Positions 1,317-29,300 of a stretch of 64,000 nucleotides of DNA are shown piece after piece. Position 1 is the first letter of the stretch. Every line of letters begins with the position of its first letter. The stretch lies in assembly GCA_016212105.1 (NCBI GenBank), contig JACRHJ010000013.1, forward strand, positions 46,782 through 110,781, given 5' to 3'. A program made the translations under genes and the position numbers. The notes beneath the pieces were generated by a model. It was not told where the DNA came from. It did not search any database and saw only the letters and a list, made by a program, of their open reading frames with translations. The stretch comes from Nitrospirota bacterium. GTDB lineage: Bacteria; Nitrospirota; JACRHJ01.

Positions 1317-3002
1317 TTGAGAGTTAACAGCTACTGCCATCAGGAGGCCCTTATCACCACAGTACACGGAAACACAACCGGGCTGAAGGCCGGGGAGATA
1401 AAGAAGCTCGAAAACATTTACCGCCGCAAGGTGCCTGCGCACGAGTTCGTCACCGCCGAACTGGGCCGGTACATGACGCTCATATCGCGCGACATCGGCC
1501 GACAGGTCGCGGTCCTGATAGACAGGGGCGGCGGGATACCGTTCGTCATCGTAGGCGACAAGCAGGAGATAACCATACCGGACCTCGCGGACTACTCGCT
1601 CGGGCCGAAGAAGCTCCGGGGCCTGCGCCTCGTCCACACCCACCTGCGCGAGGAGCCGCTGACCAACGACGACCTGACCGACCTCGCGCTGCTGCGGCTC
1701 GACGCTATGTGCGCGCTCGGCGTACAGCCGGACGGCTTCCCTGGCCGCGTGTACGTCGCGCACCTCCTCCCGCCCAACCCGGAGGAGAAGACCTGGGCGC
1801 TCATCCCGCCGTTCCCGTTCCACCAGTTGGACATTGACCCGGTAAGCTTCACGGAGGCGCTCGAAGACGAGATGCTCCGCGTGCAGGCCGAGTCCTTCGA
1901 CGTAAAGGACACGAGAGAGAAGGCGATACTCATATCCGTCATGCCCAAGAGAAACAAAGCCGTCCTGGCCGAGCAGAAGGAGGCGATGGAGGAGCTGGTC
2001 GAACTCGCACGCTCCGCCGACGTCCTCGTCCTCGAGACCGTCCTCCAGAGGCCGGACAAGCTCTCACCCAAATACCTGATGGGTTCCGGCCGCCTCAAGG
2101 ACGTCATCATCACCGCGCTCCAGAAGGGCGCGACGATGCTGATATTCGACCAGGAGCTTACCCCTTCCCAGATAAACAACATAACCGAGATGACCGAGAT
2201 GAAGGTCATAGACCGCTCTCAGTTGATACTCGACATATTCTCCCGGCGCGCGCACTCCAAAGACGGCAAGGTGCAGGTCGAGCTTGCCCAGCTCAAGTAC
2301 ATGCTGCCGAGGCTTATGGGCAAGGGCACCGCGATGTCGCGCCTGATGGGCGGCATCGGCGGCCGCGGCCCCGGCGAGACCAAGCTCGAGTCCGACAGGA
2401 GGCGCGTGCGCGACAGGATTTCCCAGTTGGAACGCGCGCTCGGCGCGCTCTCCGCCGCCCGCAAGCAGAGGAAGACCCGCCGCGCCGACGCGGGCCTCCC
2501 GATTGTCTCGATAGTCGGGTACACCAACGCGGGCAAGTCCACGCTCCTGAACAAGCTGACCCAGAGCGACACCATCGTCGAGGACAAGCTGTTCGCAACG
2601 CTCGACACCGCGTCCCGGCGGCTTCGCTTCCCGCGCGACCACGACGTGATAATCACGGACACCGTCGGGTTCATACGCGACCTGCCCGCGCCGCTGTTCG
2701 CCGCGTTCCACGCGACCCTTGAGGAGCTTGCCGACGCGGACCTCCTGATGCACGTCGTGGACATATCCAGCCCGCGGTTCGAGGAGCAGATGGCCTCTGT
2801 CGAGAGCATCCTCCAGCAGTTGGGCCTCGACGACAAGGAGCGGATAATAGTGTTCAACAAGGCCGACCTTGTCGACCCGGACATAGCCTTCTCGATAGCG
2901 CGCCGTTACGAGGGCATCGCGCTGTCCGCGCTCGACAGGAAGACCTTCCCGCCGCTGATGCAGGAGCTTGAGGAGAGGCTGTGGGAGCGGGAGGAGGATT
3001 AG
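1317..3002 (+). CDS. hflX: GTPase HflX (long form with ~190-aa N-terminal extension); start codon uncertain
   Basis: HflX N-domain (ILDIFSRRAHSKDGKVQVELAQLKY, GPGETKLE). G1 motif VGYTNAGKSTLLN. Hallmark DTVGFIRDLP. Longest ORF starts at TTG 1317 with no SD; an AGGAGG at 1342-1347 is not followed by a canonical start codon, so the true start is unclear. Confidence 0.9.
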   Translation: MRVNSYCHQEALITTVHGNTTGLKAGEIKKLENIYRRKVPAHEFVTAELGRYMTLISRDIGRQVAVLIDRGGGIPFVIVGDKQEITIPDLADYSLGPKKLRGLRLVHTHLREEPLTNDDLTDLALLRLDAMCALGVQPDGFPGRVYVAHLLPPNPEEKTWALIPPFPFHQLDIDPVSFTEALEDEMLRVQAESFDVKDTREKAILISVMPKRNKAVLAEQKEAMEELVELARSADVLVLETVLQRPDKLSPKYLMGSGRLKDVIITALQKGATMLIFDQELTPSQINNITEMTEMKVIDRSQLILDIFSRRAHSKDGKVQVELAQLKYMLPRLMGKGTAMSRLMGGIGGRGPGETKLESDRRRVRDRISQLERALGALSAARKQRKTRRADAGLPIVSIVGYTNAGKSTLLNKLTQSDTIVEDKLFATLDTASRRLRFPRDHDVIITDTVGFIRDLPAPLFAAFHATLEELADADLLMHVVDISSPRFEEQMASVESILQQLGLDDKERIIVFNKADLVDPDIAFSIARRYEGIALSALDRKTFPPLMQELEERLWEREED

Positions 3003-3041
3003 ACCGGGTAGGCTTCATTGATATTTCGGGGGTAGACACAA

Positions 3042-3830
3042 ATGCAAAATCGTTACGTCGGGGACATCGGAGATTTCGGTAAGTTCGGACTACTGAAGAC
3101 ATTGTGCCAGCCAGATGAGGAAGGCAACCAGCTTTCCCTTGGGGTAGTTTGGTATCTTGTTCCTGATGAGAACCACAACAACGACGGCAAGCATGTAGCA
3201 TATCTTGAGCCCAGCATAGGCAATATTGCCAATTTCAGAGAATGCGACCCGGTTCTTTATGATGCTATATCAAATATTGTCCGCAATGGTGAACGAACCA
3301 TCACCAGCATACGTCAGCGAAACCTTTTGCCGCGTGGGACTGCTTTTTATGAGGCGGCTTTGACTTTTAACGATATCCCAAATATAGGCTCATCTGCGCG
3401 CAAAACGAGGATTGCCTATCGTCAGGAATGGTTAAGCGGAGCGCTGGAGACTACAAAATCGTGCAATGTTGTTTTTGCAGACCCTGATAACGGTCTTGAA
3501 GTAGGCATTGAGCGTCATCAAGCGAAAGGCCCTAAATACGTCTATTTTGATGAACTATCGCCTTTTATAAAGAGAGGCCAGAGCTTAATTGTTTATCATC
3601 ATCTGTGTAGAGATGGGGACGCCCGCACACAAATTAAACGCAGGCTTGACCAGCTTAGAGGTATGGCTGCCGACACCGAAGGTATTGCCGCTCTGCAATT
3701 TCGTAGAGGAACCGCGAGAGCGTATTTTATCATACCCGCTATAGAGCACAAAACAACACTTTCAAATAATATCCAGGAATTTGTGAGCGGCAATTGGGGG
3801 CGGCATTTTGTACTGCATGAGTCACTCTAA
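3042..3830 (+). CDS. Hypothetical protein of a low-GC island (262 aa); N-terminal YVGDIGDFGKFGLL glycine-rich motif, VVFADPDNGLE and LIVYHH motifs; no family recognised
   Basis: ATG at 3042 preceded by GGGGGTAG. Local GC ~45% versus ~65% in flanking genes. The frame is clean, and 16 nt separate it from the next gene (co-oriented, operon-like). Confidence 0.6.
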   Translation: MQNRYVGDIGDFGKFGLLKTLCQPDEEGNQLSLGVVWYLVPDENHNNDGKHVAYLEPSIGNIANFRECDPVLYDAISNIVRNGERTITSIRQRNLLPRGTAFYEAALTFNDIPNIGSSARKTRIAYRQEWLSGALETTKSCNVVFADPDNGLEVGIERHQAKGPKYVYFDELSPFIKRGQSLIVYHHLCRDGDARTQIKRRLDQLRGMAADTEGIAALQFRRGTARAYFIIPAIEHKTTLSNNIQEFVSGNWGRHFVLHESL

Positions 3831-3845
3831 TACAGGAGAAAAAGT

Positions 3846-4307
3846 ATGAGCCAAGAGACGGAACCCATATGCAATAGGTGGCAGGAGAAGGTGCTCGATA
3901 AGTTTAATGAAGCAATCGAAGACGCAAAGAGAATTATCACAGACAAGAAGAAGATTTCAGCGTTGCTTGACAAGGCACATGAAATGCTTGACGCCCTCAA
4001 GAGAGTAGCCTCGCCAAAATATAAACAGGCATTGGACGAAGTTCAAACGCTGATGAGGTTAATCCGCACATGGGTTTCAGGTGAATACACCAATGTGCCC
4101 GTGTGGACGATAATAATGGCGGTTGCCGCAATTCTCTACTTGGTGAATCCTTTTGACATAATACCAGATACCATCCCCGTCGTTGGACTTCTGGATGATG
4201 CGTTTGTAATTCGTATGGTTTGCATCGCTATAATGGCCGATTTGGATGCGTTCAGGAAGTGGGAGAATTCCAGAGGCAGCGGTGTAGTAGAACCGCAAAC
4301 AGCGTAG
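3846..4307 (+). CDS. DUF1232 (YkvA-like) small membrane protein
   Basis: Signature NPFDIIPDTIPVVGLLDDAFVIRMVCIAIM, typical of PF06803. N-terminal amphipathic helix region; low GC like its upstream partner. Confidence 0.7.
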   Translation: MSQETEPICNRWQEKVLDKFNEAIEDAKRIITDKKKISALLDKAHEMLDALKRVASPKYKQALDEVQTLMRLIRTWVSGEYTNVPVWTIIMAVAAILYLVNPFDIIPDTIPVVGLLDDAFVIRMVCIAIMADLDAFRKWENSRGSGVVEPQTA

Positions 4308-4336
4308 ACAAAGAACGGCATAAACTTATCATCGAA

Positions 4337-4370
4337 GAAGCCCGCGACGTGTGTCGCGGGCTTCTTCGTT
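4337..4370. terminator. Perfect 14-bp-stem hairpin between convergent genes (island operon vs guaA); likely bidirectional terminator
   Basis: gaagaagcccgcgac-gtgtg-tcgcgggcttcttc. On the minus strand it is followed by gatgataagtttatg. Confidence 0.55.
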
Positions 4371-4386: not shown

Positions 4387-5955
4387 CTACTCCCACTCAA
4401 TAGTAGACGGCGGCTTCGACGAAATATCGTAGCACACCCGGTTCACGCCCTTTATCTCGTTTATTATCCGGTTCGATATCACGCCAAGCAGGTCGTACGG
4501 CAGACGCACCCAGTCGGCGGTCATCCCGTCCTTGGAGTTCACGGCACGCAGCGCGACGACGTTCTCGTATGTCCGCTCGTCGCCCATGACGCCGACGGTA
4601 CGAATGGGCAGCAGCACCGCGAACGACTGCCATATCTCCCTGTACAGACCCGCCTTCTTTATCTCCTCCAGGACGACCGCGTCCGCCTCGCGCAGTATGC
4701 GAAGACGCTCCGCGTTTACCTCGCCGAGTATGCGTATGGCAAGCCCCGGGCCGGGGAACGGCTGACGCCAGATTATCTCGTCCGGCATCCCGAGCTCCTT
4801 GCCAAGCTCCCTGACCTCGTCCTTGAACAGCTCGCGGAGCGGCTCGACAAGCTTCAGCTTCATCTTCTCCGGCAAGCCCCCGACGTTGTGGTGGGACTTT
4901 ATGATGGCAGACGGGCCTTTGAGCGACACGCTCTCGATTACGTCCGGGTAGAGCGTACCCTGCGCGAGGAACTCCGCCCCTTCGACCTTCGCAGCCTCGG
5001 CCTCGAACACCTCTATGAACGTCGTGCCGATAATCTTGCGCTTCTTCTCCGGGTCTTCCACTCCCGCCAGCCTGGACAGGAACGTCTCGGAGGAGTCCAC
5101 GTACTTGAGGTTCAGGCCCATCTGCGCGTAGGTCTCCGGCACCCGCTCCGCCTCGCCCTTCCTCAGCACGCCGTTGTTTACGAATATGCAGGAGAGCTGG
5201 TCGCCGATGGCCCTGTGCACGATGACCGCCGCGACCGAGGAGTCCACGCCTCCGGACAGCGCACATATCACCTTCCGGTCGCCGACCTGCTCTCGTATGA
5301 TGCCGACCGCGTAGTCTATGAAGCTGCCCATGTCCCAGGTCGGTTCGCAGCCGCAGATGCCGAACAGGAAGTTCTTGAGTATCTGGAAGCCCTGCGGCGT
5401 GTGTACGACCTCCGGGTGGAACTGCACGCCGTAGAAACGGCGCGCCTTATCCGCCATCGCCGCGGTCGGGGAGTTGTCCGTGTGCGCGACCGGCCCGAAG
5501 CCCTCCGGCATCCGCTCAATCCTGTCGCCGTGCGACATCCAGACCACTGTGCTGCTCGCGGACTCGCCCTCGCCTATGCCGCCGATCGCCTTGAGGAGGT
5601 CCGACTCGTCGTCGATAAGAAGCTCCGCCCGGCCGTACTCGCGCTTGGCCGCCTTGGCGACCTCCCCGCCAAGCAGGTGGGTCATGAGCTGCATCCCGTA
5701 GCATATGCCGAGCACCGGGACTCCGAGGTCCAGGTGCTCCTTCGAGATGAGCGGCGCGCCGTCGTCGTAGACGCTTGACGGGCCGCCGGAGAGTATCAGG
5801 CCTTTGGGGTTGAACGCACGCACCTTCTCGATACCCGCGTTGTACGGCATTATCTCGCAGTAGACCTTCGCCTCCCTGACCCTGCGCGCGATGAGCTGGG
5901 TGTACTGTGAACCGAAGTCGAGTACGAGTACCCTTTGCTGGTGTATGTCTGACAA
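4387..5955 (-). CDS. guaA: GMP synthase (glutamine-hydrolysing)
   Basis: [28 protein letters not shown]..., GATase and ATP-PPase (SGGVDSS) motifs, C-terminus ...[11 protein letters not shown] start at 5955 with GGAGG 8 nt upstream. Confidence 0.95.
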
Positions 5956-5959
5956 GACG

Positions 5960-6277
5960 TTGACCTCCGGTAATTAATTGTGCGGGCGCGGTTTTTCGCG
6001 CCCTTCCAAACTGTAGGGGCCGACCGTCGTGTCGGCCCTTGCGGTTGTTATTATGTAGGGGCGGGCCTCCGTGCCCGCCCTTGCGGTTTATTTGTTCGTC
6101 ATTCCCGCGAAGGCGGGAATCCAGGAAGTTGTAGGGCGCGACGCCCCCGGCGCGCCGGAATAAGGTGCGGGCGCGGAATCCGCGCCCCTACAATATTCAT
6201 ATACAGGCAGATTCTTCGCTTCGCTCAGAATGACACCAAAGAGGGCGGGCACGGGGACCCGCCCCTACATAAAATCC
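5960..6277. repeat. Intergenic mosaic of short hairpin repeat modules (families F, C, D, A, E, F, J, D)
   Basis: tgtaggggccgaccgtcgtgtcggccc; tgtaggggcgggcctccgtgcccgccc; gtcattcccgcgaaggcgggaatcc; tgtagggcgcgacgcccccggcgcgcc; ttcgcttcgctcagaatgacacc; gggcgggcacggggacccgcccctacataaaa. All recur elsewhere in the window. Confidence 0.85.
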
Positions 6278-6361
6278 AAATCCCCCTCATTCCCCCTTTT
6301 TCAAAGGGGGAGGTCAGGTCTTGTCCCCACTTTGTAAAAGGGGGGACTACAGGGGGGATTT
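6278..6361. repeat. 84-bp TIR-bounded hairpin element (copy 1), MITE-like; direct repeat of 6954..7038
   Basis: aaatccccctcattccccctttttcaaagggggaggtcaggtcttgtccccactttgtaaaaggggggactacaggggggattt. Terminal inverted repeats AAATCCCCC/GGGGGGATTT and an internal hairpin ccccctttttcaaaggggg. Confidence 0.75.
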
Positions 6362-6368
6362 GCCTTCC

Positions 6369-6854
6369 TCACTCGTCCTTCAGCTTGAAGTCCGTCCCGC
6401 CCTGGTCGTCGCCGGCGCGCGCCTCCCATACAAGCTCCAGCATGCTGCCGGGGTGGTATATCTCAAGCACCTTCTTCGAATGCCCTCCGGCGGGAAGCGT
6501 GAAGACCCCGACCTTGAAGGACTTCCCGTCCATGCCGATGCTGAACGTGTACTCGTGCCCCGCCGGGAGCCGGACGTGGAACAGGCCGTCGTCCTGGTTT
6601 ATCTCGGCCGTGCGCCTGAAGTCCCCGGCCACGAATAACGCAAGCAGCGGCCCCTTGTGGGGAGTGCCGTACTCGGAGCAGAGCGTCCTGCCGAGCAACT
6701 GGACAGACTCGGCAGTCTCGGCGTCCGTCTTCTCCTCCGTGCACGGGGGCGGGATGTCGTCGATAATGACCGGGCCGGTCGTGGCCGCGTGCGCGGTCAG
6801 CGCGAAGAGCACCAGTGTGGACAGGATTACCAATAGCGCGAACTTGTACATCAT
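6369..6854 (-). CDS. Secreted hypothetical protein (signal peptide MMYKFALLVILSTLVLFALTAHA), flanked by two copies of an 84-bp element
   Basis: Clean 161-aa ORF with host-like GC and an N-terminal signal peptide; no family recognised. Confidence 0.6.
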   Translation of the reverse strand: MMYKFALLVILSTLVLFALTAHAATTGPVIIDDIPPPCTEEKTDAETAESVQLLGRTLCSEYGTPHKGPLLALFVAGDFRRTAEINQDDGLFHVRLPAGHEYTFSIGMDGKSFKVGVFTLPAGGHSKKVLEIYHPGSMLELVWEARAGDDQGGTDFKLKDE

Positions 6855-6953
6855 ACTGCAACTCCATACGTCGAGTCCGTCATTCCCGCTGGTGCGGGAA
6901 TCCAGGAACTTTACTGTTAGCAGTGACCGGTGATGATCATGCCCGGCCTCTTT

Positions 6954-7038
6954 AAATCCCCCTCAATCCCCCTTTTTCAAAGGGGGAGGCTTATGCATTG
7001 TCCCCACTTTGAAAAAGGGGGGACTACAGGGGGGATTT
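6954..7038. repeat. 84-bp TIR-bounded hairpin element (copy 2)
   Basis: aaatccccctcaatccccctttttcaaagggggaggcttatgcattgtccccactttgaaaaaggggggactacaggggggattt. About 85% identical to copy 1, same orientation. Confidence 0.75.
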
Positions 7039-7052
7039 GCTTTTCTCTCCCC

Positions 7053-7475
7053 TCACACCAGCTCCTTGCCCGTCGTCGCCATGCTCAGCTTGCCGTGCAC
7101 GACGCCCTTCGTCCCGATCATCCGGTCGGCAATCCTCTTGACCACCGAGGCCTTGCCGCGCACGACCATCACTTCGAGGCAGTTGTGCTCGTCCAGGTGC
7201 ACGTGCAGGTTAGATATTATCGCGTGGTAGAAGTGGTGCTGGAGGTCGTTCAGGGTGTCCGACAGCTCTCGCGTGTGGTGGTTGTACACGAGCGTGATCG
7301 TACCGACCACCTCCTGGTCCTCCTCCCACTCCCGGCCGACGAGCGCGTCCCGTATCAGGTCGCGTATCGCCTCGGAGCGGTTGGTATAGCCCTTCTCGGC
7401 GGTGAACCCGTCGAACCGGTCCATCAGCTTCTTGTCTATGGAAATCGCAATGCGTGTCAGGTCTTTTCCACCCAA
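7053..7475 (-). CDS. nikR: Nickel-responsive regulator NikR (RHH + ACT-like metal-binding domain)
   Basis: [16 protein letters not shown]...[16 protein letters not shown] (ribbon-helix-helix); C-domain H-rich ([20 protein letters not shown]). TTG start at 7475 with GGAGGG 9 nt upstream. Confidence 0.85.
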
Positions 7476-7518
7476 GGCCGTCCGCCCTCCGAAACCGGTT
7501 AATTTCAGCTATGCCGTT

Positions 7519-7547
7519 TATTATGTATGCTTAGGATTTCAAGTCAA
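7519..7547 (-). promoter_or_regulatory. Putative sigma70 promoter for nikR (TTGACT-17-ATAATA on minus strand)
   Basis: Minus strand reads cTTGACTtgaaatcctaagcatacATAATAaacgg, upstream of nikR. Confidence 0.35.
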
Positions 7548-7629
7548 GAAAAAAATGCCGGGGCCGCAACCATATTGGCGATGATGCGCATAAAATACAG
7601 CGTTAGTTGAACAATCCGCCAGAATTAAC

Positions 7630-7659
7630 TTGACATTAAAAGTACGGTATTGCTATTCT
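7630..7659 (+). promoter_or_regulatory. Putative sigma70 promoter for the ApbE-like gene (TTGACA-18-TATTCT)
   Basis: aacTTGACAttaaaagtacggtattgcTATTCTatg; divergent from the nikR promoter. Confidence 0.35.
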
Positions 7660-7731
7660 ATGTTATACGTTTTCGAAGTCAAGAACAGGGCCGGATAAAC
7701 TTCCCCCCGCTGTTCAGGGGCAGGACGCGGT

Positions 7732-8460
7732 TTGCTTATGTACGAGGAGCGGACTTACAGGGGCAGGGTGCGCGCGGACGGGCTCGTCGCATTCACGGCC
7801 GTCGTCAAGGAGACCGACCTCTTTATCCTCGCGGACAGCGACCTCTCGGCGCTCGCGCTCGAAGTGGTCATAAGGCACCGGCACCAGCTCGAGACCTACA
7901 TCGCGGGCCACCCGGAGTTCCTGACCTCGCTCGTGCCTGTCGAGCTGAAGCTCGGCGCGCCGGAGTCCGCCGTGCGCATGGCGAGGGCCGCGCTGCCCGC
8001 GAACGTCGGGCCCATGGCGGCGGTCGCTGGCACGTTCTCGGAGCTTGTCGGCGAGGCGCTCCTCGCCCGGTCGTCCCAGGCCATCGTCGAGAACGGCGGG
8101 GACATCTATATCAAATCGACAAGCGAGCGGGTTGTCGCCCTTTACGCCGGCGACTCGCCGCTCTCCGGCAGGGTCGGGCTTAACATCCGCCCTGGCGACA
8201 CGCCGCTGGGGGTATGCACGTCGTCGGGGCGGGTCGGCCATTCGCTCTCGCTCGGCAGGGCGCACGCGGCCTGCATAATATCGAAGTCCACCGCACTCGC
8301 GGACGCGGCCGCAACCGCCGTCGGAAACGCCGTGCAGGGGCCGGGCGACGTCGAGAAGGGCATTGCGCGCGCGCAGGAAATCGAAGGCGTCTTGGGCGCC
8401 GTGGTAATCGCGGGCGACCGGCTCGCCGCCTGGGGGCTGGTCGAATTGGTGAAACTGTAG
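7732..8460 (+). CDS. ApbE-like / UPF0280 family protein
   Basis: GPMAAVAGTFSE..., VENGGDIYIKS, LGVCTSSGRVGHSLSLGRAHAACIISKSTALADAAATA, resembling the ApbE fold; 242 aa. Confidence 0.55.
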   Translation: MLMYEERTYRGRVRADGLVAFTAVVKETDLFILADSDLSALALEVVIRHRHQLETYIAGHPEFLTSLVPVELKLGAPESAVRMARAALPANVGPMAAVAGTFSELVGEALLARSSQAIVENGGDIYIKSTSERVVALYAGDSPLSGRVGLNIRPGDTPLGVCTSSGRVGHSLSLGRAHAACIISKSTALADAAATAVGNAVQGPGDVEKGIARAQEIEGVLGAVVIAGDRLAAWGLVELVKL

Positions 8461-8948
8461 GGTGGGCTACGCCCCACCATTGCATATTGGATTTTGGTTC
8501 ACTGTAGGGCGCGACGCCCCCGGCGCGCCGAGGGTTGTCATTGCGAGGAGTCCCGCGCTTCGCGGGACGACGCGGCAATCTCCACCATAATAATACAAAC
8601 GGAGGAGGTTGCTTCGCTCCGCTCGCAAAGACAGATAATAACATGAAGGGCCGACACACGGGTCGGCACCTACATAAAAGCATGGCGGGCAATGCACGCC
8701 CTACAACTAATGTTGCAGGGGGCCGTACCAGGCGAAGCGCGTGTCAGCCCAACCTGTCACCCCCGTGAAAACGGGGGTCCATTTTAACCTTGCGCGGGAA
8801 AATGGATTCCCGCTTTCGCGGGAATGACAACCTTGAAAGGTCTGTCATGGCGGGCAATGCCCGCCCTGCAACTTCCTGGACCCCGTGTCAAGCACGGGGC
8901 GACAAGCATAATCCGTCATTCCCGCGAAGGCGGGAATCCAGGAATTTT
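8461..8948. repeat. Intergenic mosaic of hairpin modules (G, E, C, G-like, B, A, G-like, H, A)
   Basis: tgtagggtgggctacgccccacc; tgtagggcgcgacgcccccggcgcgccg; gggccgacacacgggtcggcacctacataaaag; gtcacccccgtgaaaacgggggtcc; ggattcccgctttcgcgggaatgac; ccccgtgtcaagcacgggg; gtcattcccgcgaaggcgggaatcc. Confidence 0.85.
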
Positions 8949-8979
8949 CACGAACACGAAACACGAACACGAAACACGG
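8949..8979 (+). promoter_or_regulatory. CA-rich tandem element (cgaacacgaaaca x2) occupying the SD position upstream of the FmdE-like gene; a second copy lies upstream of the GT2 gene at 58786..58806
   Basis: cacgaacacgaaacacgaacacgaaacacgg ends 12 nt before ATG 8991 with no SD in between. A 21-nt near-identical copy sits 13 nt before the ATG of the minus-strand gene 57888..58772. Confidence 0.4.
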
Positions 8980-8990
8980 AATTTAGCTAC

Positions 8991-9464
8991 ATGTCTTTCG
9001 ACTTCACAGCCCTCTACGAGTTCCACGGCCACCGCTGCCCGATGTCCACGATGGGCGCGCGTCTCGGTCTTGCCGCGATGGCCGCGCTCGGCGTGACGAA
9101 GGCCGACCAGTTCAAGGTCGAGGGGCTGTTCCATACGAAGAACTGCGCGCTGGACGGCATACAGTTCACCACCGGCTGTACGCTCGGGAACGGGAACCTC
9201 GCATATGCGGAGGAGGGACGCGCGGCGTTCACACTGAATCGGCGGGACGGCCGTGGCGGCGTAGTCGTGACGGTGTCCGGCGCCGCGCTCGAAAGGCTCT
9301 CCGGGTTCAAGGAGTTCAAGGCCCGGCTCATGGAGGAGCGCGATATAAGCGGCCTCGCCCGCGCGATGGAGATAGACGCGGAGATAAACAGGGGTTTCGA
9401 CGCCCTGGTCGACTGGGTACAGTCGGCGGACGAGGGCGGGTTGGTAACAGTGACAGCAGCTTGA
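8991..9464 (+). CDS. FmdE/FwdE-family domain protein (formylmethanofuran dehydrogenase subunit E-like)
   Basis: MSFDFTALYEFHGHRCPMSTMGARLGLAAM..., the HGHxCP motif of PF02663. The upstream part of the longest ORF (8790..) covers repeat modules and is rejected. Confidence 0.75.
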   Translation: MSFDFTALYEFHGHRCPMSTMGARLGLAAMAALGVTKADQFKVEGLFHTKNCALDGIQFTTGCTLGNGNLAYAEEGRAAFTLNRRDGRGGVVVTVSGAALERLSGFKEFKARLMEERDISGLARAMEIDAEINRGFDALVDWVQSADEGGLVTVTAA

Positions 9465-9476
9465 GGAGGTAGCCGC

Positions 9477-10409
9477 ATGGCCGCCAAAATATATGACGGG
9501 GTACTGGAGCTTATCGGCAAGACGCCGCTTGTGCGGCTTGTCCGGATGACCGGCGAGAAGGACGCGGCGGTCTATGCAAAGGTCGAGGGCGCGAACCCCG
9601 GCGGGAGCGTCAAGGACAGGATAGCGCTCTCGATGGTGGAGGAGGCCGAGAAGTCCGGCCACCTCAAGCCCGGCGGGCTGATAATAGAGCCGACGAGCGG
9701 GAATACCGGCATCGGCCTGGGCATAGTCGCGGCCATCAAGGGCTACAAGCTGATACTGACCATGCCGGAGACGATGTCCGTCGAGCGCAGGACGCTCCTT
9801 GCGGCGTACGGGGCGGAGCTTGTGCTGACCCCCGGCCCGGAGGGGATGCGGGGCGCGGTGGTAAAGGCGGAGGAGATAGCGGCCGCCAACCCCGGCAGCT
9901 TCATACCCCAGCAGTTCAACAACCCGGCGAACCCGGAGGTCCACAGGAAGACGACGGCGAGGGAGATACTCTCCGCGCTCGGCCCCCGGATAGACACGTT
10001 CGTCGCGGGCGTCGGCACCGGCGGCACCATCACCGGTGTAGGCGAGGTGCTCCGCTCCAAGAACAAGGACATAAAAATCGTCGCGGTCGAGCCGTCGGCG
10101 TCGCCCGTGCTGTCCGGCGGCACGCCCGGCCCGCACAAGATACAGGGCATAGGCGCGGGCTTTGTCCCGACGGTCCTGAACACGCAGATATACGACGAGA
10201 TAATACAGGTGACGAACGAGGACGCGGCGGATACAGCGAGGCGTCTCGCCGCCCAGGAGGGCATACTCGCCGGCATATCCTCCGGCGCGGCTCTTTTCGC
10301 CGCCCTCGCGGTGGCAAAGAGGCTCGGCAAGGGCAAGAACGTCGTCGTCATACTCCCGGACAGGGGCGAGCGCTACCTCAGCACGGGGCTGTTCGGGGGC
10401 GGGGCGTAG
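9477..10409 (+). CDS. cysK: Cysteine synthase (O-acetylserine sulfhydrylase)
   Basis: GKTPLVRL..., [10 protein letters not shown] (PLP lysine), [20 protein letters not shown]; 310 aa. Confidence 0.9.
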
Positions 10410-10410
10410 A

Positions 10411-10735
10411 TGTAACTTCCTGGGCTCCGTGTCAAAGCCTGCCCTGAGCCCCGGCTTTATGCATACCGGGGTAAACTCCGCCGAATGGGCACGGGGAGAC
10501 ACCAAAAGCCTGTCATTCCCGCGAAAGCGGGAATCCAGCGACGTTGCTTTTATCGTACCATTGAGAAAGGCAGGGCCGACACACGGGTCGGCCCCTACAT
10601 AAAAACAGAACCTTCGGCGCGCCGGGGGCGTCGCGCCCTACGAAATACCGCAGTGGGGGCCACACAGAAGTTCTTGGGCCGCCTTCTTACAAGAAGGCGG
10701 GACTTGTATCGTTAAAGCTGGCGTTTCTCATGCGC
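10411..10735. repeat. Intergenic mosaic (H with nested N insertion, A, C, E, K)
   Basis: ccgtgtcaaagcctgccctgagccccggctttatgcataccggggtaaactccgccgaatgggcacgggg; gtcattcccgcgaaagcgggaatcc; gggccgacacacgggtcggcccctacataaaaac; ggcgcgccgggggcgtcgcgccctac; agttcttgggccgccttcttacaagaaggcgggactt. Confidence 0.85.
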
Positions 10736-10772
10736 CGTTGACCACAACCTGTTCTGACAGGGGGAGAGTGAT

Positions 10773-11237
10773 ATGCAGTTATCGACCAAGGGGCGGTATG
10801 CGGTCAGGGCTATGTTCGACCTGGCGTTTTATTCGCAGGGGGAGCCTGTCCCGCTGTCGAGGATATCGGAGCGGGAGGAGATATCGCTCCATTACCTTGA
10901 GCAGCTCTTCAACAAGCTCCGTAAGGGCGGCGTGGTCGAGTCCGTGCGCGGCCCGTCCGGCGGGTTCAAGCTTGCGAGGAAGCCCTCCGAGATCTCCGTG
11001 GAGGAGATAATCAGCATCGTCGAGGGTCCGATAGTCCCGGTCTCCTGCCTGGAGCACAAGGACAAGGACAGGGTCTGCCACAGGGCGGAGAAATGCGTCA
11101 CGTTCATCCTCTGGAAGCGGCTGGGCAAGAACATAACCGAGTTCCTGTCCTCGGTCACGCTCCAGGACCTGGTGGACGAGGCGAGGGAGCTTCTCGACTC
11201 CGGGAAGGTCACGCACGACTATATGTTCTACATATAA
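10773..11237 (+). CDS. Rrf2-family transcriptional regulator (IscR/CymR-like, Cys-containing)
   Basis: MQLSTKGRYAVRAMFDLA... wHTH, SGGFKL, Cys residues C92/C101/C107; adjacent to cysK. Confidence 0.85.
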   Translation: MQLSTKGRYAVRAMFDLAFYSQGEPVPLSRISEREEISLHYLEQLFNKLRKGGVVESVRGPSGGFKLARKPSEISVEEIISIVEGPIVPVSCLEHKDKDRVCHRAEKCVTFILWKRLGKNITEFLSSVTLQDLVDEARELLDSGKVTHDYMFYI

Positions 11238-11239
11238 GT

Positions 11240-11400
11240 TCTTGTGTCGCCCCGTGCTTGACACGGGGTCCAGGAAGTTGTAGTTGCCCGATTTATCGGG
11301 CGGTTGTCAATGCAGGGCCGACACGCGGGTCGGCCCCTACATAAAAACAAGAACTTCCTGGATTCCCGCCTTCGCGGGAATGACGGCTATACTTGCAATA
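11240..11400. repeat. Intergenic mosaic (H, O, C, A)
   Basis: ccccgtgcttgacacgggg; ttgcccgatttatcgggcgg; gggccgacacgcgggtcggcccctacataaaaac; ggattcccgccttcgcgggaatgac. Confidence 0.8.
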
Positions 11401-14887: not shown

Positions 14888-15140
14888 CTCGTTTGCCTTT
14901 ATGTAGGGGCAGGTCCCCGTGCCTGCCCTGCCTGTCACCCCCGCGAACGCGGGGGTCCGGTGACTTGGTTCCGGGCTTGTTTCTTGATTGACGAAAGTCC
15001 CTGGATTCCCGCTGGAGTTTACCCCGGTACTCCTAAGGCCGGGGCGGGAATGACGTTCAACTAAAACGTGAATTGCCGTACCTTTTCTTAACTCACAAAA
15101 GTTCTTGGGCCGCCTTCTTTCAAGAAGGCGGGACTTTGTT
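14888..15140. repeat. Intergenic mosaic (D, B, A with nested N insertion, K)
   Basis: tgtaggggcaggtccccgtgcctgccc; gtcacccccgcgaacgcgggggtcc; ggattcccgc[tggagtttaccccggtactcctaaggccgggg]cgggaatgac; aagttcttgggccgccttctttcaagaaggcgggactt. Confidence 0.85.
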
Positions 15141-20124: not shown

Positions 20125-20410
20125 TCCAGATTTGACACCCGCCGATTCCTCCGGTAATATTTATTCAACCCGCCGGGTTGTCATTCCCGCGAAAGCGGGA
20201 ATCCATTGGAAAAGCATAAAGCCAAAATGGACCCCCGTTTTCACGGGGGTGACAATCAAGGGATAAGTAGTAGGGTGGGCTGCGCCCACCAATAATAATC
20301 GGTGGGCATAGCCCACCCTACATGTTCGAGGTCTTTGTAGGGCGCGACGCCCTCGGCGCGCCGAGCCGTCAGACGATCGGTGCATAGCCCACCCTACATA
20401 TACAGGAGCG
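20125..20410. repeat. Intergenic mosaic (A, B, G, E, G)
   Basis: gtcattcccgcgaaagcgggaatcc; ggacccccgttttcacgggggtgac; tagggtgggctgcgcccacc...ggtgggcatagcccaccctaca; tgtagggcgcgacgccctcggcgcgccg. Confidence 0.85.
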
Positions 20411-23943: not shown

Positions 23944-24068
23944 GGTGCGACGCCCCCTCAAGCCGATTGTCATTCCCGCGAAAGCGGGAATCCATTGTAA
24001 TGGCCGAGTCAAATTGGACCCCCGTTTTCACGGGGGTGACAGGCAGGGCCGACACACGGGTCGGCCCC
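23944..24068. repeat. Intergenic mosaic (E-like, A, B, C)
   Basis: tgtagggtgcgacgccccc; gtcattcccgcgaaagcgggaatcc; ggacccccgttttcacgggggtgac; gggccgacacacgggtcggcccctacatgaaag. Confidence 0.85.
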
Positions 24069-24071
24069 TAC

Positions 24072-24710
24072 ATGAAAGCAAGAAGATACACCTTGCCCGA
24101 AGACGCCTACAACATAGAATCCGGCGAGGACAAGGCCTGGCGCGAGCTGGCCGCCGCCGGCCCGGAGTCGGTCGTGAAGCGGAGCCTCGCTGCCTACGAC
24201 GCCGCGTCCGGCAGCTACACCCTGACTGTCTTCGGCGAGGAGTACCTCGTTTCACCCGCCACGCGGACCATATCCAACCTCTCAAACCCGTCACGCGCTG
24301 ACGAAATCCTGCTACGCCTCGCTGTACCCGTCTACCTCGTGAACGCCCGCGCGGTTGAGCCGTCCGGCGTGCTGGTCAAGGAGTTCACCGGCGGCGAGAT
24401 ATTCCTCAAGGGCACACACGTCCTGCCGACGGACGAGATAGCGAAGAAGTACGGAAGCGACGGTGATTATTTCCTGAGGGCGGGGATGGCGGAGCTTGGC
24501 GGAGCGCCGGTGAGGCTGGGTGATGCGGCAATCGGGTTCAGGCCGTTCCCGCGCGTCTCGATGACGATGATACTCTGGCTCATGGACGAGGAGTTTCCCG
24601 CGCGGGCGAGCCTTCTCTTCGACGGAAACGCGGACAGGCACATGCCTATTGACGTGGTCTGGGCGGCCGCCCTGCTGGCGTGTGAGAGGATGCTGAAGAT
24701 CCTGAATTAA
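24072..24710 (+). CDS. Hypothetical protein (212 aa)
   Basis: ATG 24072 immediately after the repeat block. Host-like GC; no family recognised by eye. Confidence 0.55.
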   Translation: MKARRYTLPEDAYNIESGEDKAWRELAAAGPESVVKRSLAAYDAASGSYTLTVFGEEYLVSPATRTISNLSNPSRADEILLRLAVPVYLVNARAVEPSGVLVKEFTGGEIFLKGTHVLPTDEIAKKYGSDGDYFLRAGMAELGGAPVRLGDAAIGFRPFPRVSMTMILWLMDEEFPARASLLFDGNADRHMPIDVVWAAALLACERMLKILN

Positions 24711-24716
24711 TATCAG

Positions 24717-25322
24717 TTAAGATATAACCGTTGATTTAAATGCACTTTGAATGTCTTCGATAAACTTCTTGAAACTATTATCTCGTTTTGATGCGAGTTT
24801 TACATCCATTTCTTTTGCTAAATCTCCTCCGTATTCGGCCCCGCCTCTACGTGGCCTTATCCCGCCAGCAATAAAGGCATCCCTCAACATCTTTTTGTAA
24901 ACATCCTTCTCGCATTTTCCAAGTTGCGGGGTATCGGGGGTAGGTATGTTGCCGACCGTCGCCAATGCTTTGCAATCCAATAAATACCAGCACTCGATAT
25001 GTGGCTCTGGTAAAGCCAGGACAAGCGGTGTCAATCCTAATGCATCGCCGGTCTCTTTTTCTACAAGTTTTCGTTTTCCGTTATAGCCAGAACAATTGGC
25101 ATCAACCGAAACCACGACAACATCGTATTTTATAGCACGGCCTATTTTCAACCCGCTCAAATACCGATAGTAGGTCCCCAACGATGCACCTTTTTGATCG
25201 TTAAGGACAACTATTTCGATAGCAATTTTCTTATCGGCGGCGACTCGTTCGATTAAACCGCAGATTATTTCTTTCTGCGCGATGTCCTCCAGAAACACGG
25301 CGACTCGAAGAATTCTACCCAC
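24717..25322 (-). CDS. DUF4276-family protein (TOPRIM/OLD-like, AbiLii-like) in a low-GC island
   Basis: GRILRVAVFLEDIAQKE (N-terminal acidic strand), DVVVVSVDAN (DxD-like), HIECWYLLD (E-x-W motif). Preferred start is GTG 25322 with GGAG 6 nt upstream, overlapping the upstream stop by 8 nt; TTG 25364 and ATG 25358 are alternatives. GC ~45%. Confidence 0.65.
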   Translation of the reverse strand: MGRILRVAVFLEDIAQKEIICGLIERVAADKKIAIEIVVLNDQKGASLGTYYRYLSGLKIGRAIKYDVVVVSVDANCSGYNGKRKLVEKETGDALGLTPLVLALPEPHIECWYLLDCKALATVGNIPTPDTPQLGKCEKDVYKKMLRDAFIAGGIRPRRGGAEYGGDLAKEMDVKLASKRDNSFKKFIEDIQSAFKSTVIS

Positions 25323-26619
25323 CGTAAACTCCGGTCGCAAAGTTCTCTTCGAGCGCATCGTCAATCTCTTGTTTCATGAATAATTCACCAAATGTGCTGA
25401 ACGGCATGATTTGCGTTCTCTGGTTTTCCCAAAGGCTTACAAATAGCTGCTCCGATTCGAAACAACGCGCAAATATGGGGGAATGCGTTGTTATGATTAC
25501 CTGCTTCTGCATCGTCTCAACATATTCAATAAACCAGTCGGCAAGCAGTTGAATCCTGCGGGGATGTACGCCGTTTTCCGGTTCTTCGTAGCCAACTACA
25601 TTCGCAGGTTTCAGGGCGGATAGTATGCTGGCGATACCAATAATCCGGAGAGTACCCTCCGAGACTACCCTTGCGGTCCTTTCCCCGTCTTCTTCCGTAA
25701 CGTGAAGCAGGAGCTGCCCATCTTTAGTACGCTCGATGAGGATATCCTTAACCCTCGGCAATACCTGGGCAAGTGATTTCACCAATGAAGCGAACTGCTT
25801 GGGATTTTCTGCTTCGAGAGTATTTAGAAACGCCGTCAGATTTTCTCCTCGGCTGCCAATGTTTTTCACTTCTGAAATTGGATTTGCCGCCCGCATGATT
25901 TCACGGGGTTCAAAATAATAGAACGCCCATTTTTCCATCTCCCGCTTTGCAAGGCTCATATGCTGATAATGTGGTAAATACAAAGGCGTTGATAGAATTG
26001 TATGGTCTATACCGACATCAAAATATCTGGGATGCGCCTGACCCTCCATGCGTAGCGAAAGTTTACCATTTGATTTTCCAACAAACGGGTTCCGGCTTTT
26101 TAAGGTTTCAGTGAAATCTTTTCGTAATGCTTCCAGCTTTTCATCGAATACACCTATGTTACCGGACTTCAAGTCTACCCTCAGTACAAGTCTGTATCTA
26201 AGTTGCCTGCAAAGTGCAATCCTTTCCTGCGGTGTTGAATCAAATTGAACGTCACCGTGCAGTTCATGCTTAATGTCATCTTTGCTATCGATGTACGGCT
26301 TGCGAATAGCCTTTATTTCTTCTTTAAGTTCTTTTTCCGTATCTTCATCAATCTCAAGGTCGACCTCGAAAGTTATGTCTCTGCTTCCGTATTCATCGGA
26401 GGGGGTCCAGCCGTAAATACACTCTAGTGGTAATCCCCTATGAGAGGAAAAAGCCTTAGTCAGGGTGGGGTTGGTAACAGTGCTTGAGAGCAGGGCCAAA
26501 GCGTCGAGCAGGTTACTTTTGCCCGTGGCGTTCGGCCCCATGATAACGGCAAGCGGGCCGATAGTCAGTTCGAAATCCTTGAACGACTTGTAACCGTCAA
26601 TATAAATGCGTCTTATCAT
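25315..26619 (-). CDS. AAA_21/AAA_15-type ABC ATPase (OLD/AbiLi-like)
   Basis: MIRRIYIDGYKSFKDFELTIGPLAVIMGPNATGKSNLLDAL (Walker A); VVGYEEPENGVHP (Walker B/D-loop); H-loop ITTHSP. Start set at ATG 26619 by the family N-terminus (ORF track gives 26676). GC ~45%. Confidence 0.8.
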   Translation of the reverse strand: MIRRIYIDGYKSFKDFELTIGPLAVIMGPNATGKSNLLDALALLSSTVTNPTLTKAFSSHRGLPLECIYGWTPSDEYGSRDITFEVDLEIDEDTEKELKEEIKAIRKPYIDSKDDIKHELHGDVQFDSTPQERIALCRQLRYRLVLRVDLKSGNIGVFDEKLEALRKDFTETLKSRNPFVGKSNGKLSLRMEGQAHPRYFDVGIDHTILSTPLYLPHYQHMSLAKREMEKWAFYYFEPREIMRAANPISEVKNIGSRGENLTAFLNTLEAENPKQFASLVKSLAQVLPRVKDILIERTKDGQLLLHVTEEDGERTARVVSEGTLRIIGIASILSALKPANVVGYEEPENGVHPRRIQLLADWFIEYVETMQKQVIITTHSPIFARCFESEQLFVSLWENQRTQIMPFSTFGELFMKQEIDDALEENFATGVYGG

Positions 26620-26701
26620 ATTTGCATGCCTTTTCCATCGGTAAACCTGAGAGAATGCCGTCGCCAAGTACGACATGCTATCGGAAACCTTCCGCCACCC
26701 C

Positions 26702-29104: not shown

Positions 29105-29300
29105 CGGCCCTCGTTGATTCTGGTTTATGTAGCTGCCCGATTCATCGGGCGTTTTTAATAGCGCCCACAACTGAGCGGGTTACAACTGTTTGTCACCCCC
29201 GTGCAAACGGGGGTCCATTTTGACGTTATTCATGAAAATGGATTCCCGCTTTCGCGGGAATGACGATATCGAGAGTTGGCGCGGGAACTATCCCTGCCAA
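29105..29300. repeat. Intergenic mosaic (O, B, A)
   Basis: ctgcccgattcatcgggcg; gtcacccccgtgcaaacgggggtcc; ggattcccgctttcgcgggaatgac. Confidence 0.8.

Follow-up and report, generated by a model that had tools for sequence, protein, structure and literature searches.

The window analyzed here is a 64,000-nucleotide (nt) stretch of the genome of a Nitrospirota bacterium (assembly GCA_016212105.1, contig JACRHJ010000013.1, positions 46,782 to 110,781 of the forward strand). Near its start, a block of ~1.3 kb with a low guanine-plus-cytosine (GC) content lies between the housekeeping genes hflX and guaA and carries two genes, called gene 1 and gene 2 below. A reading of the sequence alone (the original prediction) had proposed the pair as a candidate defense or toxin-like module. 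We found that the island is a real foreign two-gene block with an uncharacterized variant of a known enzyme fold, and that it is not a demonstrated or recurring defense module. The explanation we prefer, with a probability of roughly 0.6, is that the pair is recently acquired cargo, in which gene 1 encodes an autonomous enzyme of the RlmJ type and gene 2 an orphan membrane passenger. The features of the locus are as follows (GC3, GC at third codon positions).

3003..4332, no strand: low-GC foreign block (the island), from just past the hflX stop codon up to a host-like GC-rich hairpin
3042..3830, plus strand: gene 1, 262 amino acids (aa), member of a large unannotated family with a predicted RlmJ-type methyltransferase fold
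3480..3494, plus strand: codons of D147-P-D-N-G151 in gene 1, at the end of the predicted strand 143-147, where RlmJ and the DNA amino-methyltransferases have motif IV, (D/N)PP(Y/F)
3834-3838, plus strand: AGGAG ribosome-binding site (Shine-Dalgarno) of gene 2, read from sequence, 7 nt upstream of the ATG
3846..4307, plus strand: gene 2, 153 aa, an orphan DUF1232 protein (Pfam PF06803)
4333-4348 / 4353-4368, no strand: GC-rich hairpin with a perfect 16-bp stem and a loop of 4 nt, lying between the stop codons of gene 2 and guaA, which converge on it
1317..3002, plus strand: hflX, flanking host gene (Pfam GTP-bdg_N, GTP-bdg_M and MMR_HSR1; GC3 0.88)
4387..5955, minus strand: guaA (GMP synthase), flanking host gene convergent with the island genes (Pfam GATase and GMP_synt_C; GC3 0.86)

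Foreign composition of the island

Both open reading frames (ORFs) were found where they had been predicted, and a low-GC pair between convergent hflX and guaA was confirmed by GC, GC3, codon usage and Pfam. In 300-nt windows over 3000-4350, GC was 0.43-0.48, compared to 0.60-0.69 in the flanks. GC averages 61.8% over the window and is 46.1% in the island as a whole (z = -3.9, using 1300-nt windows). GC3 is 0.43 for gene 1 and 0.53 for gene 2, far from the values of the two flanking genes. The codon-usage distance between the island and host genes is 0.9-1.07, compared to 0.31-0.44 for host genes among themselves, and the codon usage of the island groups with that of a second low-GC island of the window, far from the host genes.

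The family of gene 1 was then compared across 71 loci. Elsewhere, family members follow the composition of their hosts: their GC3 ranges between 0.32 and 0.90, and the median delta GC3 is -0.01 to -0.09. The copy in the window has a delta GC3 of -0.43, the most deviant of the 71. Since the GC3 of the family tracks its hosts and the window copy deviates most, the family is a long-term resident in many lineages and the window copy is a recent import. The nearest relative of gene 1 is 60% identical. The original prediction of foreign cargo is thus supported: composition and codon usage both mark the pair as such, through the z score of the island, the codon distances and the rank among the 71 loci.

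Of the signs of a genomic island, the atypical composition is present. Mobility signatures (integrase/transposase, tRNA target, direct repeats) and an empty site were not found: no integrase or mobility gene adjoins the island, there are no tRNA genes in the whole window, and no convincing direct repeats or target-site duplication flank the block.

Boundaries, transcription and insertion site

The two genes are co-oriented and may be co-transcribed because only 15 nt separate them. The stop codon of hflX is 39 nt from the start of gene 1, with no terminator in between. Because no promoter-like or terminator-like site was found in the 39-nt or the 15-nt gap, both genes would probably be transcribed by read-through from hflX, ending at the hairpin.

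A perfect-stem hairpin does follow the pair, as had been noticed, but its stem is 16 bp and not 14 bp (-33.9 kcal/mol, z = -6.3). Since it is GC-rich like the host, it was assigned to guaA and the island was taken to end just before it. The hairpin is probably a host 3' hairpin of guaA and not part of the island, and would now end both transcripts. No U-tract or T-run lies beside it on either strand, a terminator scan made no call, and Rfam gave only sub-threshold generic matches on both strands. The hairpin is also outside the REP-like (repetitive extragenic palindromic) repeat families of the host. These GC-rich palindromes pack the host intergenic regions (window positions 5956-11400, 14890-15140, 20170-20370, 23960-24090 and 29180-29275) and include TGTCATTCCCGCGAAAGCGGGAATCCA in at least 9 copies, GGGCCGACACACGGGTCGGCCCCTACAT in 5 copies, and TGTCACCCCCGTGAAAACGGGGGTCCA. 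A 96-nt repeat is found at 6282-6377 and 6959-7054.

The site between hflX and guaA had been described as a conserved housekeeping junction, which was not borne out. Among the three closest relatives, whose HflX is 74-78% identical, none has guaA or the pair downstream of hflX. The genes there are a peptidase in one relative, a metalloenzyme and thymidine phosphorylase in another, and MazEF in the third. The region downstream of hflX fits a variable spot, and the relatives are too divergent or rearranged to show an empty hflX-guaA site. The MazE/MazF toxin-antitoxin pair lies directly downstream of hflX (L091:6667-7250), suggesting that accessory genes have repeatedly landed on the 3' side of hflX in this lineage. 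In the preferred reading, a ~1.3-kb block from a lower-GC donor would have been inserted recently at just this place. HflX of the window also has an N-terminal extension of ~220 residues (1317-1980, the N-terminal third of the protein; GTP-bdg_N, the first Pfam domain, starts at residue 222), which is retained in relatives of ~564 aa.

Recurrence of the pair and nature of gene 2

The loci used in this comparison were 80 from species-representative genomes plus those of individual homologs. A DUF1232 gene was found within 8 kb of a family gene in none of the 82 distinct genome loci, using phmmer with ORF2, the protein of gene 2 (E <= 10), and a relaxed motif regular expression. Over all ORFs of the homolog loci, these searches retrieved the window's own ORF2 alone. 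PF06803 was likewise absent near the family gene in 8 further metagenome contigs annotated with Pfam, and a search of 5.8 billion (5.8e9) proteins gave no full-length relative of gene 2 except itself. Because of these three results, we conclude that the pair of gene 1 and a DUF1232 gene is unique to this genome. The original prediction of a module made of an enzyme and a membrane effector was therefore not borne out; the two genes would simply travel together here and would not represent a recurring system.

Gene 2 itself was correctly recognized as a DUF1232 membrane protein, with 49 bits to PF06803 (cutoff 23; E 5e-13). Hydropathy suggests a soluble, helical N-terminal region of ~80 residues followed by hydrophobic segments at ~84-103 and ~112-136, and the predicted motif NPFDIIPDTIPVVGLLDD sits in the loop between these two segments. 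The protein also matches phrog_14750, a family of unknown function (E 1e-11). Nothing on function was found in the literature on DUF1232/YkvA. Gene 2 would be a two-helix membrane protein and is probably an unrelated passenger.

Gene 1 belongs to a large unannotated family

As the original prediction had stated, gene 1 matches no named sequence family. Searches against Pfam, NCBIfam, PADLOC and PHROGs gave no match (for Pfam and NCBIfam, none at E <= 1), and neither did phmmer and profile searches against the PDB. More than 850 homologs were found with a word-indexed search, all labelled 'hypothetical', in Nitrospirota, Chloroflexota, Bacillota, Methanosarcinales, ANME-2 and others. An exhaustive profile search extended the family to 3,883 clusters at 50% identity in bacteria and archaea. 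Nearly all of the best 150 representatives are single-domain proteins of 245-270 aa. Two candidate fusions were dropped: the extension of P0244 looks like a miscalled start, and the C-terminal domain of P0262 (weak DUF6998) has no matches among neighbors.

The motifs singled out earlier are all present in gene 1: YVGDIGDFGKFGLL at residues 5-18, VVFADPDNGLE at 143-153 and LIVYHH at 182-187. The invariant core of the family is Y5, D8, D11, K14, W37, D48-G49, R85, R127, W130, D147-P-D-N-G151, K165, Y185 and R226. Conservation was also scored over 205 diverse members, a set that takes in homologs from plasmids and viruses that are 28-34% identical. The conserved positions are Y5, D8, G10, D11, K14, L18, W37, G49, Y54, D69, R85, R127, W130, F145, D147, P148, D149, N150, G151, K165, Y185, H187, R226 and W252. 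Conservation in the family is highest over residues 1-19 (with Y5, D8, G10, D11, K14 and L18), and D147-P-D-N-G151 is invariant in 45 sequences and present in at least 94% of the 205.

Predicted fold and possible activity of gene 1

The structural model of gene 1 begins with the conserved tail (residues 1-19), followed by the first strand (33-37) and helices (59-92). Strand 143-147 ends in D147-P-D-N-G151 and strand 181-187 ends in Y185-H-H; the C-terminus is formed by a helix (234-254) and a strand (256-259). This is the layout of RlmJ, with a Rossmann methyltransferase domain, a helical insert after strand 1, and a further helix and strand at the C-terminus. The earlier idea of an RNase-H-like or ASKHA fold was not supported by the model. 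In RlmJ, a strictly conserved motif X formed by N-terminal residues 1-19 (Y4, H6, D15, K18, H19) closes down on both cofactor and substrate, motif IV is D164-P-P-Y167, an extra C-terminal helix and strand are present, and the substrate pocket binds adenosine monophosphate (AMP) (PMC3814359). From the order of residues along the sequence, gene 1 would have counterparts of the Tyr and Lys that act in catalysis from motif X, of the Asp-Pro in motif IV, and of W195, the base-stacking aromatic residue with which strand 5 ends. In motif X, the Tyr and one Lys are the only residues with plausible counterparts.

Several findings weigh against this reading. Gene 1 is not a member of the RlmJ family (PF04378) by sequence profile, with no match in Pfam and none for its profile against the PDB. 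An alignment with E. coli RlmJ using hhalign only placed VVFADPDNGL on LILIDPPYEM, with a probability of 0.15%, which is not significant. Foldseek searches of the PDB and BFVD gave nothing significant, only weak, generic methyltransferases. The motif IV of RlmJ, DPP(Y/F), is not found; D147-P-D-N-G151 shares the Asp-Pro and is without the second Pro and the aromatic residue. A glycine-rich loop for S-adenosylmethionine (SAM) is not evident in gene 1, and the family conserves the acidic residue that follows strand 2 only in part. Also, genes 1 and 2 lie 15 nt apart in one compositional block, so a functional link between them in the donor is possible. Overall, the predicted fold and layout of gene 1 are RlmJ-like, and the protein stands outside the RlmJ family itself.

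If the preferred reading holds, gene 1 would encode an autonomous single-domain enzyme in which a motif X tail precedes a Rossmann core, with a helical insert behind the first strand and one more helix and strand at the C-terminus. The N-terminal Tyr5 and Lys14, the Asp147-Pro148 pair in the DPDNG loop, and Tyr185, where strand 5 ends, may line a pocket that accepts either a free nucleotide or a flipped-out base. The enzyme would then place a group on the exocyclic amine of an adenine or cytosine, whether in RNA, in DNA or in a nucleotide. We infer that the group is, most simply, a methyl from SAM. Because DPPY is replaced by DPDNG and several acidic residues are invariant, the chemistry or substrate would differ from that of RlmJ.

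Defense context

One alternative is that the two genes form a defense, abortive-infection or toxin-antitoxin module, with gene 1 sensing or modifying something during infection and the DUF1232 protein acting as a membrane-disrupting effector. The genes were acquired together, are co-oriented and closely spaced, and gene 2 has its own ribosome-binding site. DUF1232 proteins are also found in phages (phrog_14750). Some close relatives of gene 1 do have a setting of the defense or island type: some in Methanosarcinales adjoin MNT/HepT toxin-antitoxin pairs, one is beside McrBC, a Mu-type transposase and UvrD, and in Bacillota there is a setting with a PLD/NgoFVII-like nuclease, HEPN_Toprim and DUF6884. 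Others are beside HicAB arrays and a Mutator transposase. However, most family loci are outside such contexts and among ordinary metabolic genes, and some are stable among housekeeping genes. The pair is also found nowhere else and ORF2 has no homolog. A search of both proteins against PADLOC-DB 2.0 gave no significant match, so the pair does not correspond to a known defense system. Gene 1 had no hit at all, the best for gene 2 was PDC-M50A (E 0.0026, 16 bits), and neither protein matched a toxin or antitoxin family. Taken together, we consider a defense module quite unlikely.

The second low-GC island of the window, which has been raised in favor of a defense role, lies at 24717-26676 on the minus strand. 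Its GC is 0.43-0.49, the GC3 of its genes is 0.44 and 0.49, and its codon usage is the same as that of the first island. It encodes a 453-aa AAA_15/AAA_21 ATPase that matches HEC-01A of PADLOC (E 1.3e-54) as well as models of the AriA, AbiLi and GajA type, and a 215-aa protein with a weak match to DUF4276. It adjoins a cluster of the host REP-like repeats at 23967-24088. This second island is likely a two-gene defense candidate. Because it carries a HEC-01A-type ATPase, the genome can be said to acquire low-GC cargo of the defense type, which does not by itself make the first island defensive.

Neighborhoods of the gene 1 family

In 21 of 72 loci, the family gene is part of a cassette with a fixed order: a PurA-like (adenylosuccinate-synthetase-like) gene of ~360 aa, a dCTP-deaminase-like (DCD-like) gene of ~290 aa, the family gene, and a P-loop nucleotide-kinase-like gene of ~180 aa. 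Most carriers are Dehalococcoidia and other Chloroflexota, with some Alphaproteobacteria. An example is L003:4034-7396, and others include L001, L004, L007, L009, L012-L016, L020, L022 and L024. The cassette often has in its vicinity transposases, another DCD-like gene or a Mrr_cat_2/ResIII protein of 1,470-1,770 aa. A variant (L002:765-8013, in a genome shared with L017; similar in L021, L023 and L027) has a fused kinase-PurA-like protein of 536 aa together with DUF7002 proteins, a DCD-like protein and an unannotated protein of 273-300 aa. No description of the cassette was found in the literature searched, and searches on DUF7002, 'RlmJ-like', and PurA with dCTP deaminase in defense gave nothing relevant.

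The cassette brings up another possible explanation, in which gene 1 would be a solo copy from a four-gene pathway and would tap the host nucleotide pool here. The pathway would build, recycle or deplete a modified nucleotide, either a purine or a pyrimidine. The conserved order of the cassette, its fused variant and the binding of AMP by RlmJ (PMC3814359) would agree with a free nucleotide as the substrate. The kinase domain of the variant matches the defensive dCTPase model of PADLOC (E 1.8e-8). Other family loci adjoin ribonucleotide reductase or a xanthine/uracil permease fusion, and the window copy is near guaA. On the other hand, the cassette partners are not found in the window, the family gene is alone in ~70% of loci (cassettes make up ~30%), and adjacency to guaA is seen at no other locus and is probably due to chance. 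We also know of no RlmJ-type enzyme that acts on mononucleotides. This explanation is unlikely in our view.

The other 51 loci have no recurrent neighbor: 142 Pfam families were found among 115 neighbors, each in at most 4 loci, and most are ordinary metabolic genes. The GTPase gene that follows relative P0003 was set aside as an uninformative, generic EngB/Nog2-like match. In six Dehalococcoidia (L033, L035, L037, L041, L049 and L051), a solo family gene with host-like GC3 is fixed between tpiA and miaA, in the order pgk, gpmI, tpiA, family gene, miaA, dapF (for example, L037:7225-9791). MiaA also modifies the N6 of adenine, at A37 of tRNA, and E. coli hflX sits in a miaA-hfq-hflX operon. The proximity to miaA in these genomes and to hflX in the window may be coincidence or may hint at RNA modification.

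Carriage on mobile elements bears on a third explanation. Gene 1 could modify DNA so as to mark or protect it, either as an orphan enzyme or as the modifying partner in systems of the restriction-modification type, and travel on mobile elements. Its active-site layout resembles that of DNA m6A methyltransferases to the same degree as the layout of RlmJ does. A family member on the conjugative plasmid pCTYH.Ch1_3 of Ensifer adhaerens (28% identity; L094:5014-7319) has a GIY-YIG nuclease gene close by on either side, all apparently in a single operon, and a Bacillota copy is near a PLD restriction-type nuclease. A Sulfuricurvum plasmid copy is near DNA polymerase IV, and in cassette loci the Mrr_cat_2/ResIII proteins occur near the family gene. 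The family is, however, absent from 50,697 phage genomes, and only distant copies were found elsewhere, 4 in 2.9 million viral contigs and 3 in 72,556 plasmids. Gene 1 also has no target-recognition domain, its motif IV is not (D/N/S)PP(Y/F/W), and the window contains no nuclease partner. A DNA-modifying role of this kind is, in our judgment, very unlikely.

Two further observations concern mobile settings of the family. An SOS-response-associated peptidase and a DNA methyltransferase are encoded near the Ensifer family gene. A Desulfitobacteriia contig (JBMNGP010000027.1; L010 and L011) has two family copies ~10 kb apart in an apparent segmental duplication. One copy is followed by 3 tandem repeats of a 75-aa gene pair that appears HicA/HicB-like (L011:9023-10876) and the other by a Mutator-family transposase.

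Significance

For the window itself, the preferred reading makes the pair ordinary cargo of horizontal transfer, which does not belong in a catalogue of defense systems. The broader value lies in the family. A large family without annotation can now be placed structurally beside RlmJ, on the basis of the model, and its invariant residues form a defined set that can be tested. Elsewhere, the family is also found reproducibly together with nucleotide enzymes, in an arrangement of four genes. A more ambitious proposal is that gene 1 represents an undescribed enzyme class (~3,900 clusters) with an RlmJ scaffold, the DPDNG loop and an acidic, possibly metal-binding pocket; that the Chloroflexota cassette is a new pathway for base-modified nucleotides; and that the window copy is a mobile stand-alone version. 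We regard this as doubtful. Under this proposal, the cassette could make, recycle or destroy a nucleotide modified at purine C6/N6 or pyrimidine C4/N4 and could serve immunity or DNA or RNA modification. If the family does modify bases or nucleotides with non-canonical chemistry, it would be a new branch of the amino-methyltransferase superfamily and could explain the recurrent unannotated operon of Chloroflexota.

Comparison with known systems

The closest known system to gene 1 is RlmJ, the 23S rRNA m6A2030 methyltransferase (PDB 6QE5/4BLU family; Legionella LPL1258, 2OO3). Gene 1 differs in having no detectable sequence homology to RlmJ, DPDNG in place of DPP(Y/F), and Y5/D8/D11/K14 in motif X instead of Y4/H6/D15/K18/H19. 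Between its insert and its strand 4, it also seems to be one beta-alpha unit short. RlmJ is mostly a proteobacterial housekeeping enzyme, whereas the gene 1 family is patchy across bacteria and archaea and is often horizontally transferred.

The DNA amino-methyltransferases of the (D/N)PPY class (Dam, T4Dam, M.TaqI) share with the predicted structure of gene 1 the Rossmann methyltransferase fold and a catalytic Asp-Pro after strand 4, which is positioned by a Lys of the N-terminal motif X region. Foldseek weakly matches gene 1 to Dam and phage adenine methyltransferases. In contrast to these enzymes, gene 1 has neither a target-recognition domain nor PP(Y/F), and the structural and sequence scores are not significant.

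The cassette of other genomes resembles the defensive dCTP deaminase, a kinase-deaminase fusion ('dCTPase' in PADLOC), in having DCD-like proteins and a matching P-loop kinase domain. It differs in that a PurA-like enzyme and the RlmJ-like protein are added and its DCD-like proteins have no PADLOC match. Lastly, gene 2 has the signature loop of DUF1232/YkvA (PF06803) between two hydrophobic helices and passes the family threshold, but its 80-residue helical N-terminal region and its full length set it apart from the other members.

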